From a virus, in IMG/VR virus record IMGVR_UViG_3300027709_000056, positions 96,001-160,000 of that record: a DNA stretch of 64,000 nucleotides, one strand, 5' to 3'. The translations under genes were made by a program, and so were the position numbers. Positions within the stretch are counted from its first letter, which is position 1; each line of letters begins with the position of its first letter. Under the pieces are notes generated by a model, which ran no database searches, had not been told where the DNA came from, and was given only the letters and a program-made list of their open reading frames with translations. Below, in pieces: positions 41,562 to 48,203 of the stretch.

Positions 41562-43811
41562 CTAATGGATTGTATGTTCAACTTCTTCTATATTTAATAC
41601 AAATTCCTTATCTTTAACGGCTATGTTAACTTTTCCACCATCTTTTAATTTACCAAACAATAACATCTTAGATAATGGACGTTTAATATCATTATCTATA
41701 ACTCGCTGTAATGGCCTTGCACCCATTTTTTGACTAAAGCCTTTATCAACTAATACATCTATAGCTTCATCAGAAATAGTAATGTCAACATCTTTATCTT
41801 TTAACATAGTTTTTAATTGTACTAAGAACTTACCAACAATTTTTATCATTGTATTTTTATCTAATTTACTAAATGTAACAACACCATCTAATCTATTTCT
41901 AAACTCTGGTGGAAAGAATCGTTTAAGTTCAGCATCTTCAAAGTCAGGCTCTTCAGAACCAAATCCTATTAGTGTTTTTTCTGCGTCTTCGGCCCCTAAA
42001 TTAGTTGTTAATATTAAAATAATATTTCTACAATCTGCTGTTTTACCGTTACTACCTGTAATAAATCCGTTATCCATTATTTGTAATAACAATGAACTAA
42101 CATCAGGGTGTGACTTTTCAATTTCGTCTAGTAATAAAACACAATTAGGTGTTTCTTGTAATGCTGTAATAAGTTGCCCTGCATTTTCTTCAAATCCTAC
42201 ATATCCTGGAGGTGAACCAATTAGTTTAGCAACAGAATGCTTCTCTTGGAATTCACTCATATCAAATCTAACAAGTTTTACACCTAGTTGGAATGCAAGT
42301 TGTCTAGCAGTTTCAGTTTTACCTATACCTGTTGGACCCATAAACACAAAAGAACCAATTGGTTTACGTTCTTCTTTAAGTCCTGCTTGGGCAACAAGAA
42401 TTTTATCAACTACATTTTTAAGAGCTTTATCTTGTCCATAAATTTCACCCTGAAGATTCTTCTCTAAATTAGCAAGATTACTTGTTTCTTTTTCTTTAAT
42501 TTGCTCTTCAGGAAGATTAACCATTTTTGCTAATTCAAATTGTATTTCTTCGGCCTGAACAAATTTATTATCCGGAGTTGTAACTGATTTAATATTAAAT
42601 CTAGAACAAGCACAATCAAGTAAGTCAATAGCTTTGTCAGGTAGCTTTTTATCTGTTTGATATTTGATGCTTAACTTAATTGCGGCATCAACAGCGTCTT
42701 CTGTAATAGTAGTATTATGAAATTCTTCATAATATTTTTTAATTCCCATTAAAATTTCTTTTGTAATTTCTTTACTAGGTTCATCAACAGTAACTCTAGC
42801 AAATCTACGCATTAATGCCCTATCATTTTCAAAGTACTTGCGGAATTCTTCCCAAGTAGTAGATGCAACTACTTTAATATTGCCTCTAGTTAATACAGGT
42901 TTTAACATATTTGCAAGATCGTTTGAACTGCTACTACCAGCCGCTCCTGCTCCACTAATCATATGTGCTTCGTCGATAAACACAATAGTTTTACCACGTT
43001 TCTTTAATGCTGTAATTACTAACTTAAAGCGTTCTTCAAAATCTCCTCTATACTTACTACCGGCTAACATAGAACCAATGTCTAAATTATAAACATTATA
43101 TTCTTGTAAAAATACAGGACATTCTTTCTTTACAATTTTCCAAGCAAGTCCTTCTGCTATAGCAGTTTTACCTACACCAGGATCACCAACAAGTAATACA
43201 TTATTCTTTGAACGTCTACCAAGTGCTAATGCAATTGTATCTAATTCTTCGTGTCTACCTACTACAGGATCAATTTTACCTGCATCAACTGATTGATTTA
43301 AGTTTGTTGTAAATGAACGTAATGCTCTAGTAGCCAATCCTGATACTTCTTCATCTTCATAATTGGCTTCTAATTCGTTGTTTAAATAATCTGCAAATTT
43401 AGTCTTATCAACATCTGCTTTAGCAATATGAAAGTATGCCCATGATTTAGTTTCGTTCATCATACTAAGAAATACGTCTGATATTTCAATATGTTGTCGT
43501 CCACTAAACAATACCTGTGTAAATGCTCTATTAAGAACACGTTCAACAGCATGAGTTTTCTTAGGCTTGTATTTTTTACCTTGAACTTCAGCAGTTTCGA
43601 TAGCTTGTAAGTTGTTTTTTAGATAATGCTCAAGATTCTTTTTAATTAATTCGTGGTCAGTTCCGAATCCTTCTAAAATTTTTGCGAAGCTTTCCTCACA
43701 GAGCATGGCAAACAATAAATGTTCAATAGTTACGTATTCATGCTTTAACTTTTTTGAAACATCTACTGCTTTATCAAAAACCAACTGTAATTGTTCACTG
43801 GGTTCTACCAT
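41562..43811 (-). CDS. clpA: ClpA-type AAA+ unfoldase
   Basis: Clp N-domain; GDPGVGKT/FIDEAH and GPTGIGKT/LLDEIEK; GYVG pore loop; no ClpB M-domain; 749 aa. Confidence 0.9.
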   Translation of the reverse strand: MVEPSEQLQLVFDKAVDVSKKLKHEYVTIEHLLFAMLCEESFAKILEGFGTDHELIKKNLEHYLKNNLQAIETAEVQGKKYKPKKTHAVERVLNRAFTQVLFSGRQHIEISDVFLSMMNETKSWAYFHIAKADVDKTKFADYLNNELEANYEDEEVSGLATRALRSFTTNLNQSVDAGKIDPVVGRHEELDTIALALGRRSKNNVLLVGDPGVGKTAIAEGLAWKIVKKECPVFLQEYNVYNLDIGSMLAGSKYRGDFEERFKLVITALKKRGKTIVFIDEAHMISGAGAAGSSSSNDLANMLKPVLTRGNIKVVASTTWEEFRKYFENDRALMRRFARVTVDEPSKEITKEILMGIKKYYEEFHNTTITEDAVDAAIKLSIKYQTDKKLPDKAIDLLDCACSRFNIKSVTTPDNKFVQAEEIQFELAKMVNLPEEQIKEKETSNLANLEKNLQGEIYGQDKALKNVVDKILVAQAGLKEERKPIGSFVFMGPTGIGKTETARQLAFQLGVKLVRFDMSEFQEKHSVAKLIGSPPGYVGFEENAGQLITALQETPNCVLLLDEIEKSHPDVSSLLLQIMDNGFITGSNGKTADCRNIILILTTNLGAEDAEKTLIGFGSEEPDFEDAELKRFFPPEFRNRLDGVVTFSKLDKNTMIKIVGKFLVQLKTMLKDKDVDITISDEAIDVLVDKGFSQKMGARPLQRVIDNDIKRPLSKMLLFGKLKDGGKVNIAVKDKEFVLNIEEVEHTIH

Positions 43812-43815
43812 TTAG

Positions 43816-44343
43816 TTACCTTCTATTATATAATTTATCATATTTTTTAAAGTACTTCTGTCGCTTCTTTTTAGCCATATTGAGCTTTAGCTTACTTACT
43901 CTATCTATAAAATTAATTCCGTATAAATGGTCGTATTCATGCCCAAATATTCTAGCATTCCAACCTTGTAACTCTATTGTACACTCTTTTTGCTTACTGT
44001 CAAGACAATCTATTATCAATCCAGCTGGACGTTTTACTTTAATATATAAAAAAGGAAAACTTAAACACCCTTCTTCACCTATAATTGTTTCTTCTGTTAC
44101 GTGAGTTATTTTGGGATTAATTATAGCAAATGCTTTGTCATCTTCATAGCCTTTTAATTCTACAGGCTTCATAATAAAAATTTGTGCATCTAATTCTACT
44201 TGATTAGCCGCCAATCCGACACCGTGTTTCTCATCCATAATAGATATCATATCGCGTTCTATATCTAAAGCATTATGCTCAGTAAAATCAAACGGCTTTA
44301 CTGTTTTTTCTAACCAACTATTTGGAGCTTCTATTAATTTCAT
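43816..44343 (-). CDS. def: Peptide deformylase
   Basis: GVGLAANQV, EGCLS, HEYDH. Confidence 0.95.
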   Translation of the reverse strand: MKLIEAPNSWLEKTVKPFDFTEHNALDIERDMISIMDEKHGVGLAANQVELDAQIFIMKPVELKGYEDDKAFAIINPKITHVTEETIIGEEGCLSFPFLYIKVKRPAGLIIDCLDSKQKECTIELQGWNARIFGHEYDHLYGINFIDRVSKLKLNMAKKKRQKYFKKYDKLYNRR

Positions 44344-45188
44344 CGTAATAAGTTTTTTAATTTTTTTTGTGTTTGTTTGTCGTTAATATTAGGTGTAATG
44401 CCATTAATCTTAATAAACAATGACCCAGTTCTTCTAGTTCTATGATCTGGTAACCCTTGTTCGTGTACACTAAACGTTGTACCAGGGTTTGAACCAGCCG
44501 GGATTTGTACATTTAATTTCTTTCCATGGATTGTGTCAACGGCAATACTTGTGCCTTGGATAAGATCAATAACATCAACATTTTTATTTACATAAAGGTC
44601 TATACCATCTACATCATATATGGGGTGTTTCTTTACACGTATTTTAACATGAAGATCCCCTGGTTGTCTACCTGGAAAGTACTCATTTCCACCCATACCT
44701 CTAAAATTTATTGTATCTCCAGGGCGTACTCCTCTAGGTATATCAATATTAACTGTATGCTCTTGTCCATTCTGTTGCCTAAATGATGCAATAAAACTTT
44801 TACCTGTTATAATATCTTCTAATTCAATATCTGCGGCTATTGTTACATTTTGATTTCGTCTTTGTTGAAAGCCACGTCCGAAAAATGGATTATCGCCTCC
44901 ATTAAACATTTGGTCAAATATATCTCCTACGTTAATGTTATCACCATGAAAATGATATTGTTGTCCTTGAGGTCTATGTTGGTGTGGATCAGTAGTACCG
45001 AATTGATCGTACATTGATTTTTTCTGTGGATCTTTTAAAGTATCGTATGCTTCGTTAATTCGTTTGAATTGTTCTTCGTTTCCACCTCGGTCAGGATGGT
45101 GCGTCATCGCTTTTTTCTTAAAAGCGTTTTTAATATCCGTTTCTGAAGCATTTCGAGGAATCTCTAGTATGTCATAGTAATTTGCCAT
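44340..45188 (-). CDS. dnaJ: DnaJ/CbpA-type J-domain co-chaperone (no Zn finger)
   Basis: NYYDILE, HPD, GDLHV; GATAAGTAC late-motif variant at 45193-45201. Confidence 0.9.
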   Translation of the reverse strand: MANYYDILEIPRNASETDIKNAFKKKAMTHHPDRGGNEEQFKRINEAYDTLKDPQKKSMYDQFGTTDPHQHRPQGQQYHFHGDNINVGDIFDQMFNGGDNPFFGRGFQQRRNQNVTIAADIELEDIITGKSFIASFRQQNGQEHTVNIDIPRGVRPGDTINFRGMGGNEYFPGRQPGDLHVKIRVKKHPIYDVDGIDLYVNKNVDVIDLIQGTSIAVDTIHGKKLNVQIPAGSNPGTTFSVHEQGLPDHRTRRTGSLFIKINGITPNINDKQTQKKLKNLLR

Positions 45189-45231: not shown

Positions 45232-45549
45232 TTATTTGCGTTTGGGCATTGATGCACCAGGCTTACCAACATACAATCCAAAGAATGCCGCGCCAGCACC
45301 AACTATAGTTGAGATAAACATAGCTTGAGAATTAGTTGGATCTGGTAAAGCCATAAACCATGTAACTGATTGATAGAATGCCATGATGTAAGCTAACATA
45401 ATTAGTCTAGGTATAACTCTAAACTTATCAAGAACGCCAGCTGTTTGATTATACCAAGTACCGTCTTCGTCACCAGATGCAGGAACTAAATCTGCTTTAT
45501 CTAATTCATATTCCCGACTAGTTTCTTTTACTTGAATTTTATCACTCAC
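45232..45549 (-). CDS. Two-TM membrane protein, possible holin
   Basis: Two hydrophobic helices, basic C-terminus, near lysis genes. Confidence 0.5.
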   Translation of the reverse strand: MSDKIQVKETSREYELDKADLVPASGDEDGTWYNQTAGVLDKFRVIPRLIMLAYIMAFYQSVTWFMALPDPTNSQAMFISTIVGAGAAFFGLYVGKPGASMPKRK

Positions 45550-45953
45550 TTCTTGTCTCCATTTTTAATTTTTTTAATCTCTTCGCGATTATCATGAATC
45601 GCTGATCTATTATTATGAGGAGTATGATCAAAAACAACTTTTTCTAATTTTAGAAATGGTATTCTATCATTGGGTACATAACGCCAAATATAGTCGCCAT
45701 CCCATTCACCACCTGTTTTAGTAATACCGAATACAGTTTCAGTCATTCCTATTTTAACAATTAAAGCTCTTTCGCCATCGAGTATAACTTTATCACCTTC
45801 TTTAAATTGTGGGTTTAATTTAAATGCTATACCTTTGGCAAGTTTAGTAGCCCAGTCTTTAAACCAAATAGCTATCATGATGGAGATTAGAATTCCTATC
45901 CACGGCATCATTACATCTGTCAACTGTAAGGACAGGTCGTTTAATTCATTCAT
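45546..45953 (-). CDS. Minimal MscS-like mechanosensitive-channel protein
   Basis: TM helix followed by FKEGDKVILDGERALIVKIG (MscS beta-domain pattern). Confidence 0.6.
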   Translation of the reverse strand: MNELNDLSLQLTDVMMPWIGILISIMIAIWFKDWATKLAKGIAFKLNPQFKEGDKVILDGERALIVKIGMTETVFGITKTGGEWDGDYIWRYVPNDRIPFLKLEKVVFDHTPHNNRSAIHDNREEIKKIKNGDKK

Positions 45954-46198
45954 TATTTTTTCTCCAACTTGTTAATGCGTTTTTCCATAGCCTCTAGTTT
46001 TTCTTTAAGAATAGGGAATTTTTTCATCTGCTTTTCTTCGTCTGTTATCAGTTTTATGTGGTAGCGTTTTGCCGCCCAAGTGTATAATTCATCTATTTTA
46101 TTATAAAACCAGACACCTAGTTTTGTGCCGCGAAACCATTTTTCAGTTGCGCCGCCTAAAATACTTCCTGCAATAGCTTTTATAAGAAAAAACCACAT
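45953..46198 (-). CDS. Small hypothetical membrane-associated protein
   Basis: 81 aa; SD AAGGAG; GATAAATA motif at 46224-46231. Confidence 0.7.
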   Translation of the reverse strand: MWFFLIKAIAGSILGGATEKWFRGTKLGVWFYNKIDELYTWAAKRYHIKLITDEEKQMKKFPILKEKLEAMEKRINKLEKK

Positions 46199-46241: not shown

Positions 46242-46955
46242 TTATGGAATAACGTTGGTACTGCCACCTCGATCGGTAGGTAATTGCTGTTCTTGTGTGT
46301 TATTATTAGTATCTGGGGTACCATCAGGGGATACTAAAGACTCTCCCCCGAGCCAACCGTCAGCTGTTGGTTCATTAAGAGGTACTGGTTCTGGTTCTTT
46401 ATATGTTTTTTCAAGTTTAAAGTTTTCTGGTAGTATGTATGGAACAAATTTTTGACGTTCTTCGTTTGTACCTGTATGTGATTCGCCTTTGCCTTTTTTC
46501 TTACCAATTTTTACAGCTATTGTTCCGCCTTTACGTTGTTCGTCAAGACCCCTTAATTGCTTATGCATTTGTCTAGTATATGGTATAACCCAAGCTCGTG
46601 GTACAGTAGTATTAACCACTAATCCTAACTTATCTATCCATTCCATTTTTTTATCTTCTTCTTTTTTAGGTATTAACCACAAAAAGATGTTACCCTTATT
46701 ACCAGTTTTAGGGTTAGGTTCTACAATATAAGAGCCAACAAGGTAATAACTTTCGTTATTAGGGTGTGCATTATACGGAAAGCCATATATTGCTCTTAAT
46801 CCTATCCAAGCACTTGATATAGATAATAATAGTGTTATAGTAACTATAGCTTTAACAAACCATCTAGATCTAGATGCAGTAATAAAGATCCATAAGGTTA
46901 ATGCACCAAGTAATAATAGTACAAATACTAAAAAGATGTGTCCTTGTATAATCAT
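46242..46955 (-). CDS. Membrane-anchored protein with Pro-rich tail, third gene of the ExbBD-like cassette
   Basis: Two N-terminal TM helices; KEPEPVPLNEPT near C-terminus; TAATG coupling. Confidence 0.7.
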   Translation of the reverse strand: MIIQGHIFLVFVLLLLGALTLWIFITASRSRWFVKAIVTITLLLSISSAWIGLRAIYGFPYNAHPNNESYYLVGSYIVEPNPKTGNKGNIFLWLIPKKEEDKKMEWIDKLGLVVNTTVPRAWVIPYTRQMHKQLRGLDEQRKGGTIAVKIGKKKGKGESHTGTNEERQKFVPYILPENFKLEKTYKEPEPVPLNEPTADGWLGGESLVSPDGTPDTNNNTQEQQLPTDRGGSTNVIP

Positions 46956-47620
46956 TAATTGTCTCCCTGGGAATCTAAGCCACCCATACCTTGAACTATT
47001 TGGTAAGGTAATTCATTAATATCTGTAATTTTGCCATCTTCGTCTACAGTAAATCTAAGAACAGTTTTTTCTTCACCTTTTATAGTTAACATTACTTCTT
47101 TAATATAAACGACACCATATGGGTTTAATTTTTCAACATTAACCCTTACAGGTATTATTTCAAAATAATCATTTTTTGCAACATCGTGTCTAGGAGTACG
47201 TCTATATAAATGTACGTTTACAATATATTCTCCAGGAATGATGCCTCTAATTGTTACGTGTTCTATATTTTGACGGACATAAATTTTGTCGCCAGATGTA
47301 GTTGTAATAGTGTCATTAGATCTACCTAAGTCATCTCTATCTAGATTCATTAAGCCACGATCTTTTTGTTTAAAGCCAACTATATTGCCAGCCGGGTCTT
47401 TGACCCAAGTATCAATATCGTCTGCACTATTATCAGGCCAGCTAGTTGTTATAATAAATTCTGCAATTACTTCTACATTAGATTTTTTAGCAACTGGATT
47501 TATTAAGATAAAAGCTAAAACAAAAAGGAAAACAAAACCCACTAAGGTATTAAATAGCAAATCAATAAATGCTATTTGGGAACCGTATGTTCTAATTCGA
47601 TCAAGTCGAAGAAATCTCAT
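46955..47620 (-). CDS. ExbD/TolR/MotB-like bitopic protein with YfaP/DUF2135-like soluble domain
   Basis: AFIDLLFNTL TM with conserved-position Asp; W...DIDTWVKDPAG...LDRDD...E...GEYIVNVHLY. Confidence 0.65.
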   Translation of the reverse strand: MRFLRLDRIRTYGSQIAFIDLLFNTLVGFVFLFVLAFILINPVAKKSNVEVIAEFIITTSWPDNSADDIDTWVKDPAGNIVGFKQKDRGLMNLDRDDLGRSNDTITTTSGDKIYVRQNIEHVTIRGIIPGEYIVNVHLYRRTPRHDVAKNDYFEIIPVRVNVEKLNPYGVVYIKEVMLTIKGEEKTVLRFTVDEDGKITDINELPYQIVQGMGGLDSQGDN

Positions 47621-48131
47621 TCCTGTACCTTTCGAGGTCTTGTTGGAGCCTAAAGTACTGGAATTTTAATAGTGTGCTTGTTATTAAACCGGTAAGTGTA
47701 GTGTAAAGAGCAGTAGACATTCCTACTGCCATGTTTGCCAGTGCTTGTTGAACTGATGATACATCTGATATATTGATTCCATGAAATGCTCCTGCTAACA
47801 TCAATATGAAACCAGCAACAGTACCAATTAGCCCCATTGTTAATAAAACATCCGAAGCGAACCATCCTGTTTCGTGTCGAATGTCTACGTTTTTAATTTC
47901 GTCTAATTCTTTATTTGCTAGTTTACTTAACAACCAGGATTCATAACCGCAATGAACTGTCATACCATAGAAGATGGCCAAGATGAAAAACGATAGTTTC
48001 GTTTTATCTTGTATCCAAAGAGTAGTGTGTACGTCGAATAAAAATAGCCCTATAGTCGCAACTATTAATAAACTGAAGAACCACCACCACTTCAAGAAGA
48101 TAGTGTGTTTCCTAATAGTCGATATGTCCAT
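47601..48131 (-). CDS. MotA/TolQ/ExbB proton-channel family protein
   Basis: TMGLIGTVAGF and GMSTALYTTLTGL signature helices; four TMs. Confidence 0.85.
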   Translation of the reverse strand: MDISTIRKHTIFLKWWWFFSLLIVATIGLFLFDVHTTLWIQDKTKLSFFILAIFYGMTVHCGYESWLLSKLANKELDEIKNVDIRHETGWFASDVLLTMGLIGTVAGFILMLAGAFHGINISDVSSVQQALANMAVGMSTALYTTLTGLITSTLLKFQYFRLQQDLERYRNEISST

Positions 48132-48139
48132 GACAATAG

Positions 48140-48146
48140 TATTTAG
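48140..48146 (-). promoter_or_regulatory. Late-type promoter CTAAATA
   Basis: Minus-strand CTAAATAC 8 nt upstream of ATG at 48131, downstream of a terminator. Confidence 0.5.
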
Positions 48147-48175: not shown

Positions 48176-48203
48176 AAAAAAATAGGCATAAGATATGCCT
48201 ATT
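48176..48203 (-). terminator. Intrinsic terminator after spanin genes
   Basis: Perfect 10-bp stem AATAGGCATA/TATGCCTATT, 3-nt loop, U-tract on minus strand. Confidence 0.8.

Follow-up and report, generated by a model that had tools for sequence, protein, structure and literature searches.

A putative three-subunit ion-driven envelope machine carried by a marine T4-like phage and by bacterial chromosomes

A module of three adjacent genes, which appears to encode an ion-driven membrane machine, lies in a 64,000-nucleotide stretch of viral DNA that covers bases 96001-160000 of the 199,810-bp IMG/VR virus record IMGVR_UViG_3300027709_000056. The whole stretch is referred to here as the window. 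Among the products of the record, which is ~56% complete according to CheckV, is a major capsid protein of the T4 type (Pfam Gp23, E 6e-79), and the carrier is a marine T4-like phage. The three genes, called A, B, and C, are open reading frames (ORFs) on the minus strand. A (47601-48131) encodes a short channel subunit of the MotA/TolQ/ExbB family with 176 residues. B (46955-47620) encodes a bitopic subunit of 221 residues in which a transmembrane (TM) helix bearing Asp20 is followed by a predicted periplasmic beta-sandwich of the DUF2135/TerD type. C (46242-46955) encodes a protein of 237 residues with two hydrophobic helices. A and B overlap by 20 nucleotides, and B and C overlap by 1 nucleotide. 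An intrinsic terminator on the minus strand (48181-48203), consisting of a 10-bp stem, a 3-nucleotide loop, and a T run, closes the spanin/endolysin unit upstream of the trio; terminator-like sites numbered 9 in the region as compared with 2.6 expected. A late-type promoter-like motif, CTAAATA (48140-48146, minus strand), ends 9 nucleotides before the ATG of A. TAAATA was found within 45 nucleotides upstream of 20 of the 93 crudely called genes of the window as compared with 2.6% of background windows, an ~8-fold enrichment. Since it is enriched upstream of genes, TAAATA probably behaves like a promoter element in the window and is probably a T4-like late-promoter element.

A matched the Pfam family MotA_ExbB (PF01618) with an E value of 1.9e-9 and 37.8 bits, above the curated cut-off of 22.9 bits, and a search of the genome record gave the same result. 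When 34 A sequences were built into a profile and compared with structures in the PDB, matches were obtained to TolQ (E 6e-4), MotA (0.0027, or about 0.003), PomA (0.017-0.02), ZorA (0.08), and ExbB (0.27). These matches span the two pore helices, including a conserved Thr and Gly. Given these scores, A appears to be about equally distant from all known branches of the family. A phmmer search of A against PDB sequences gave chance-level matches only. In an hhalign comparison with E. coli TolQ (probability 76.8%, E 2e-5), T104 of A paired with T145 of TolQ, and T145 of A paired with T178 of TolQ. Nine residues of A are invariant (G100, G103, G107, G137, A141, L142, T144, T145, and G148), and T104 is at least 90% conserved. 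Thus, A is, as judged from its sequence, a bona fide member of the MotA/TolQ/ExbB family. Only two of its segments are strongly hydrophobic; the charge distribution, rather than a model, suggests that A probably has four TM helices with the N terminus inside. The copies in phages, SAR11-like bacteria, and Desulfobacterales are 150-200 residues long, and those of Beta- and Gammaproteobacteria and Geminicoccaceae have 60-70 additional cytoplasmic residues.

The AlphaFold2 (AF2) model of B (predicted local distance difference test score of 89.6) has a single TM helix (residues 15-39) followed by a beta-sandwich (residues 55-202). B is a single-pass protein with its N terminus inside, and its N-terminal segment has a Lys-plus-Arg count of 4. 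The TM helix carries AFIDLLFN, which places D20 in an F-I/L-D-L context. D20 was invariant in 71 diverse homologues, together with W61, D68, D70, D96, G99, E120, and G130. Pfam ExbD (PF02472) did not match B and matched only one of the 71 homologues (E 0.005), and the modelled periplasmic domain is a beta-sandwich rather than a domain of the ExbD/TolR type. No OmpA-family match was found in Pfam or NCBIfam, that is, the OmpA-like peptidoglycan-binding domain of MotB and PomB was not recovered from B.

Two independent aligners ranked TerD proteins first for the fold of B. Foldseek matched the model to the TerD entries 2qng, 2qz7, and 2kxt at a probability of 1.0 and an E value of 3e-4, and VIA-align gave TerD Z scores of 9.1 and 8.8 as compared with 6.0 for the next match; the Pfam TerD (PF02342) hidden Markov model gave no match. 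The B family profile also aligned with E. coli YfaP (DUF2135) by hhalign with a probability of 89.8% and an E value of 1.8e-6, residues 51-158 of B falling on residues 139-222 of YfaP over 81 columns. Pfam DUF2135 (PF09906) matched 2 of the 71 family members with E values of 0.002 or weaker and did not match the window B significantly. One bacterial homologue is labelled 'YfaP (DUF2135 family)' by its source. The DUF2135/YfaP call appears right because of the profile match and this label, and the sandwich is, on profile and model evidence, related to YfaP/DUF2135 and folds like TerD. By analogy with TerD, this acidic domain probably binds a cation. The window B has no match in Pfam, PHROGs, NCBIfam, or PADLOC, and its phmmer matches to PDB sequences were at chance level. 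An Atlas search with B and C gave weak leads to DUF2135 and PPC and otherwise no named cluster. Longer B proteins (250-309 residues; L130:5013-5879 and L148:5001-5930) occur in some viral loci and have a C-terminal extension with no Pfam match.

In the AF2 model of C, helices at residues 2-26 and 32-57 form a TM hairpin, residues 60-150 form a small alpha/beta domain, and the remainder is disordered. A positively charged loop joins the two helices, which according to the positive-inside rule places both ends of the protein in the periplasm. The core of C (residues 1-185; 46401-46955, minus strand) thus comprises, as modelled, the hairpin, the small periplasmic domain, and a flexible linker ending in P..LP..K (P176 and K183). 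The tail (residues 186-237 and the stop codon; 46242-46400, minus strand) is a Pro-rich and acidic extension found only in close kin of the phage. G58, R120, and P176 are invariant. The window C is 29% identical to C of Pelagibacteraceae and 44% identical to C of another phage. Across the family, the C terminus carries a conserved P..(L/F)P..K motif that follows a linker rich in Gly and Lys. Of 68 bacterial C proteins, 36 have the Lys as their final residue and 55 have at most 3 residues beyond it, and many viral copies likewise end at or near it. The window C has 54 residues after K183, including EPEPVP (187-192) and a C-terminal block conserved among near kin. This extension has no counterpart in other phages or in bacteria, whose C mostly ends within 3 residues of the motif Lys.

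In one phage clade, C continues from about residue 165 into a fused lysozyme domain of the T4 type (Pfam Phage_lysozyme, PF00959; E 5e-47 to 6e-50), which takes the place of the linker and the LP..K tail. The fusions were found at L145:2768-3661, L154:2454-3356, L158:2382-3278, L167:735-1622, and, in truncated form, L055:5600-6256. At another phage locus (L114), lysozyme is encoded by a gene of its own, 0.6 kb downstream of C. A 'longer' sequence search for C returned no fused forms, but this search was insensitive since the lysozyme fusions exist in more distant phages. C has no match in PHROGs, PADLOC, or NCBIfam. Pfam gave no TonB_C match for C, and neither a TonB_C domain nor a TonB-dependent receptor was found anywhere in the phage record. 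The description of C as a TonB-like third protein was considered and rejected, given its TM hairpin, the absent TonB_C domain, and the lineage-specific nature of its Pro-rich stretch.

Much of this had been anticipated by an earlier reading of the window from its letters alone (the sequence-only reading). It had described three coupled genes behind a terminator and a TAAATA motif, next to endolysin and spanin genes, and the gene overlaps, the 10-bp stem with its T run, the CTAAATA motif, a GH108 endolysin, and Rz-like spanins were all present. Its proposals that the bitopic protein carries a TM Asp and a domain like YfaP/DUF2135 rather than OmpA agree with the YfaP alignment and with the invariance of D20, so a lack of conservation of this Asp, which would have spoken against a motor, was not seen. 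The two hydrophobic helices and the EPEPVP tail of the third protein were likewise found. For the first protein, the proposed family was borne out by the Pfam match above the cut-off, and the proposed four TM helices are probable on charge distribution, two of the segments being strongly hydrophobic.

How widespread is the trio? ORFs were called in 167 fetched loci (a first set of 87 and an IMG/VR set of 80) and searched with A, B, and C by jackhmmer. The order A-B-C was found in 83 of the 87 loci and in 76 of the 80, the exceptions lying at contig ends except for L058, and A and B were adjacent in 163 of the 167. The sole interrupted trio seen (L145:1165-2768) has an S-adenosylmethionine decarboxylase gene (1650-2081, PHROG E 1e-16) between A and B. 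The B family comprises 1815 clusters at 50% identity (E <=1e-3), and a pattern scan found B relatives on 313 IMG/VR contigs and in 476 stretches of bacterial and archaeal species genomes. Carriers include marine phages and the chromosomes of Alpha-, Beta-, and Gammaproteobacteria and Desulfobacterales. The trio is chromosomal in at least 76 of the 80 bacterial loci fetched. For example, it lies on a 68-kb Pelagibacteraceae contig that also holds SufBCD and ATP-binding cassette (ABC) transporters, in a 6.97-Mb Desulfobacterales chromosome, and in isolates of Caldimonas, Noviherbaspirillum, Methylibium, and Methylohalomonas. In other words, the trio is not phage-specific, and the sequence-only reading had gone too far in regarding the complex as the phage's own. 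Public records name the homologues 'hypothetical' or give the YfaP label. A search of INPHARED with the region and with A (blastn and tblastn) found no close phage relatives, and a literature search combining DUF2135/TerD with MotA/ExbB/TolQ, and covering phage, pelagimyophage, and PedA1A2BC contexts, found no paper on the trio.

In an unrooted tree of the 167 B sequences, the window B falls in a starred clade of 51 rows, of which 50 are viral and one is L055. Another 37 viral rows cluster with bacterial copies of the short form; bacterial copies of the long form make up a separate starred clade. It appears from this tree that the phage copies are old and diverse, with no bacterial lineage containing them as a recent offshoot. 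The ratio of nonsynonymous to synonymous substitution rates (dN/dS) against close kin was 0.05-0.08 for A, 0.17-0.22 for B, and 0.18-0.37 for C, which indicates at the sequence level that all three genes are under purifying selection. A few loci are likely misbinned. L055, binned as Chloroflexota, nests in the viral clade among the phage loci with lysozyme fusions; L087 is binned as Nanoarchaeia; L071, from an actinomycete bin, is almost identical to L076 of Hyphomicrobiales; and L006, from a metagenome-assembled genome (MAG) labelled 'Euryarchaeota', has phage-style ClpP, ClpS, HSP70, and porin genes.

Known 5:2 ion motors power the flagellum, uptake through Ton, the Tol-Pal system, gliding and type IX secretion, and the Zorya defence. 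In these motors, pentamers of MotA, ExbB, or TolQ enclose a dimer of Asp-bearing helices, and ion binding at the TM Asp powers the relative rotation of the two; TonB or TolA binds the ExbB or TolQ subunits and relays the movement into the periplasm (PMC9389320, PMC12215075). TolQ-TolR-TolA and ExbB-ExbD-TonB are the inner-membrane energisers of the Tol-Pal and Ton systems (PMC12215075). The trio resembles them in its gene order of a channel subunit, an Asp-bearing bitopic subunit, and a membrane-anchored periplasmic arm. A has the same two pore helices and conserved Thr as TolQ, and B has the N-in single TM helix with an Asp as in ExbD and TolR. The differences are that A probably has four TM helices and almost no cytoplasmic domain; that the periplasmic domain of B is a predicted DUF2135/TerD-like sandwich; and that C has a TM hairpin in place of one helix, lacks TonB_C and TolA domain III, and ends in LP..K.

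The trio also shares features with the MotAB and PomAB stators (PMC9389320, PMC12505986), namely a probable four-TM, N-in channel subunit, adjacent genes for the first two subunits, and an Asp near the cytoplasmic end of the B helix as in MotB and PomB. Unlike these stators, B has no OmpA-like wall-binding domain or recognisable plug, A has no large cytoplasmic torque-generating loop, the third subunit is obligatory, and no flagellar genes lie nearby. The likeness to the ZorAB motor of Zorya consists of weak matches (E 1e-5 to 0.01) between the pore helices of A and ZorA models. These reach ~20-22 bits against an NCBIfam ZorA cut-off of 500, and the 176-residue A does not have the long ZorA tail. 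Furthermore, ZorC, ZorD, and ZorE genes are absent, B is unlike ZorB, and neither B nor C has a PADLOC match. The profile match, fold, and invariant acidic residues of B recall instead E. coli YfaP (DUF2135) and the Ca2+-binding sandwiches of TerD (PDB 2kxt, 2qz7). No YfaP or TerD protein that has an Asp-bearing TM helix or a MotA-like partner gene was found in this analysis or in the literature searched.

Taken together, the trio is most probably (with a probability of roughly 60%) a phage-borne copy of a widespread and unstudied three-subunit, ion-driven envelope machine of the MotAB/ExbBD/TolQR family. A and B are read as the ion-motor unit and C as its output arm because of the family membership of A, the invariant Asp of B, and the obligatory gene triad. 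According to this model, A would form a channel ring in the inner membrane, and B would sit inside the ring, by analogy in a 5:2 assembly, with the conserved Asp as the ion-binding site. B would present its acidic, probably cation-binding sandwich in the periplasm. C would be anchored by its TM hairpin, probably outside the A ring as TonB and TolA are, and would extend its small domain and flexible arm toward the cell wall, its likely target. Ion flow would then move C relative to B and so perform mechanical work on the wall or the envelope. The phage would express the trio from the promoter-like motif of its own, as a long-held accessory module that is not part of the lysis cassette.

Several results weigh against this model. 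The likeness of B to ExbD is limited to 17 TM columns, in which D20 meets D25, and is not significant (hhalign probability 1.4%); with TolR, hhalign found no match for B. The cytoplasmic loop of A is very short, and the classical interface for torque or for Ton-type coupling is absent. The soluble domain of C has no assigned fold, since VIA-align matched the TM hairpin only and Foldseek gave weak OB-fold-like rows (E >=0.13). Among the loci examined, there was no conserved fourth gene or outer-membrane partner that would name what the motor acts on. Finally, a role for the terminal Lys, as set out below, would not apply unchanged in the window phage because 54 residues follow the conserved Lys.

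What could C act on? Braun's lipoprotein, Lpp, has a C-terminal Lys that is cross-linked to peptidoglycan by L,D-transpeptidases of the YkuD family. Bacterial C proteins mostly end in or near a conserved Lys after a flexible linker, which resembles the arrangement in Lpp. Moreover, a YkuD gene lies two genes upstream of the trio in 10-11 Gammaproteobacterial loci, where YkuD and DUF302 precede the trio and VWA-FHA follows it on the same strand (for example, L053:2880-3509, L022:3809-4294, and L049:6290-7816). YkuD, DUF302, the trio, and VWA-FHA may constitute a six-gene operon. The comparison with Lpp is an analogy only, since C is an inner-membrane protein with no sequence relation to Lpp, and the long tail of the window C sets it further apart. 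Peptidoglycan is the probable contact of C, as suggested by three features, namely its topology, its fusions to lysozyme, and a terminal Lys like that of Lpp. A more specific and speculative version of the model is that the trio represents a new kind of envelope motor whose third subunit is tethered to peptidoglycan, either by an L,D-transpeptidase that links the near-terminal Lys to the wall or, in some phages, by a fused lysozyme as a substitute. The tether would give a MotA-type ring a wall contact like that of MotB, and large marine phages would carry the trio to couple membrane energisation to the remodelling or breakdown of the wall. In this detailed form the proposal is tentative, and it is unlikely to be right in full.

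The genes around the trio bear on a second possibility, that the trio is a lysis device whose motor would respond to the membrane potential or draw on it and so set the time or place of wall hydrolysis, while C would hold or position muralytic activity until de-energisation. Directly upstream of the trio, here and in the close relatives L089-L092, are the gene for a GH108 endolysin (Pfam E 7e-30; PHROG endolysin E 1.7e-48) and a pair of overlapping genes for Rz-like spanins (PHROG E 1e-10 and 9e-10), and the C-lysozyme fusions and the lysozyme gene near C in L114 would fit such a device. However, the terminator separates the trio from the spanins. Endolysin, spanin, and small downstream membrane-protein homologues occur near the trio (within 5 kb) only in L088-L092, whose B proteins are 78-85% identical to the window B, and the adjacency is therefore a feature of this phage lineage only. 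Beyond these closest kin, a T4-type lysozyme is fused to C or nearby in seven loci (the five fusions, L114, and L150); the other viral or metagenome loci among the 87 lack both kinds of gene. Linkage to endolysin and spanin genes, as expected of a member of the lysis cassette, was thus not conserved across relatives. The recurrent neighbours in other phages are ClpP, ClpS, HSP20, NifU, an Fe-S assembly protein, SbmA/BacA, aldehyde dehydrogenase, S21, and GDP-mannose dehydratase, and the fusion loci themselves lie amid ClpP, S21, and exonuclease genes rather than lysis genes. The same trio is also chromosomal in bacteria with no prophage context. A lysis device is therefore an unlikely explanation. 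Among the three roles offered by the sequence-only reading, an action on the envelope has fared best, owing to the C-lysozyme fusions; the lysis link as a general property and an interference with the host Ton and Tol systems have not found support.

Other genes near the trio in the window are side observations. Three small membrane-protein genes (81, 135, and 105 residues; window 45232-46198) follow the trio behind a TAAATA motif of their own, and the 105-residue protein matches phrog_10198 (E 4.5e-21). They are kept only in the closest relatives (L088-L092) and therefore lie outside the trio module. Directly downstream (window 41562-45188) are putative genes for a ClpA-like AAA+ protein of 749 residues, a peptide deformylase, and a DnaJ-like protein, as named from their sequence. 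In relatives, ClpX, ClpP, ClpS, HSP20, IF3, and S21 genes lie near the trio, which suggests that these phages possess an extensive set of genes for proteostasis and translation. The minus strand holds 87 of the 93 crudely called genes, and no tRNA gene was found in the 64-kb window.

A third possibility comes from the bacterial loci. The trio may be a host-type accessory for periplasmic metal or nutrient handling, in which the motor helps to provide periplasmic enzymes with Ca2+, lanthanides, or a different substrate, and the copy in the phage keeps this host function going during infection. Genes of the pyrroloquinoline quinone (PQQ)-alcohol-dehydrogenase system lie within 5 kb of the trio in 30 of the 80 bacterial loci, from Alpha-, Beta-, and Gammaproteobacteria. 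They encode a PedA1/A2/B/C-type ABC transporter and a PQQ-dependent alcohol dehydrogenase (PF01011), as in L009:564-4345 and the Burkholderiales loci L056 and L070; the transporter models TIGR03861, TIGR03863, and TIGR03866 scored above or near their cut-offs, and the ATPase model TIGR03864 scored just below. The invariant acidic residues and TerD-like fold of B would also fit, as solved TerD binds Ca2+. On the other hand, PQQ-system neighbours were found in no viral locus and are missing from 50 of the 80 bacterial loci, in which the other contexts include GT20 or the YkuD, DUF302, and VWA-FHA set. The phage record also has no TonB-dependent receptor or TonB_C domain. Support of host metal handling is accordingly a still less probable reading than the lysis device.

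Superinfection exclusion or sabotage of the host Ton and Tol systems, through mixed or competing complexes, is very improbable. Some phages and colicins use Tol or Ton for entry, and A has a general family likeness to TolQ and ExbB. However, A is about as distant from TolQ as from MotA, PomA, and ExbB, it is always accompanied by its own B and C, and bacteria keep the trio beside ordinary genes. That the trio is a recent host-derived insertion with no function in the phage can be practically dismissed: although the Pelagibacteraceae copies are 48% (A), ~52% (B), and 29% (C) identical to those of the phage, the viral clades are deep, diverse, and not nested in any bacterial clade, the family occurs on 313 viral contigs, all three genes are under purifying selection, and the trio has its own promoter-like motif; the sporadic host-derived insertion named by the sequence-only reading as its counter-case was rejected on the tree and selection data.

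The phage's use of the trio is accordingly ranked as follows: a long-held accessory envelope function comes first, control of wall hydrolysis second, and support of the periplasmic metal-dependent metabolism of the host third. If the trio is an ion-driven envelope machine, the known 5:2 motors would gain a branch that is compact and widespread, differs in its inner subunit (DUF2135/TerD-like), and has a third subunit as an obligatory part, and the orphan DUF2135/YfaP domain would receive its first mechanistic context. Isolates of Methylibium, Noviherbaspirillum, and Caldimonas carry the trio, as do Pelagibacteraceae MAGs and hundreds of large marine phages. With the terminal Lys and the lysozyme fusions as starting points, a function directed at the wall can be tested directly in carriers that are cultivable. 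For phage biology, the finding raises the question of why a virus would carry a membrane motor of its own.

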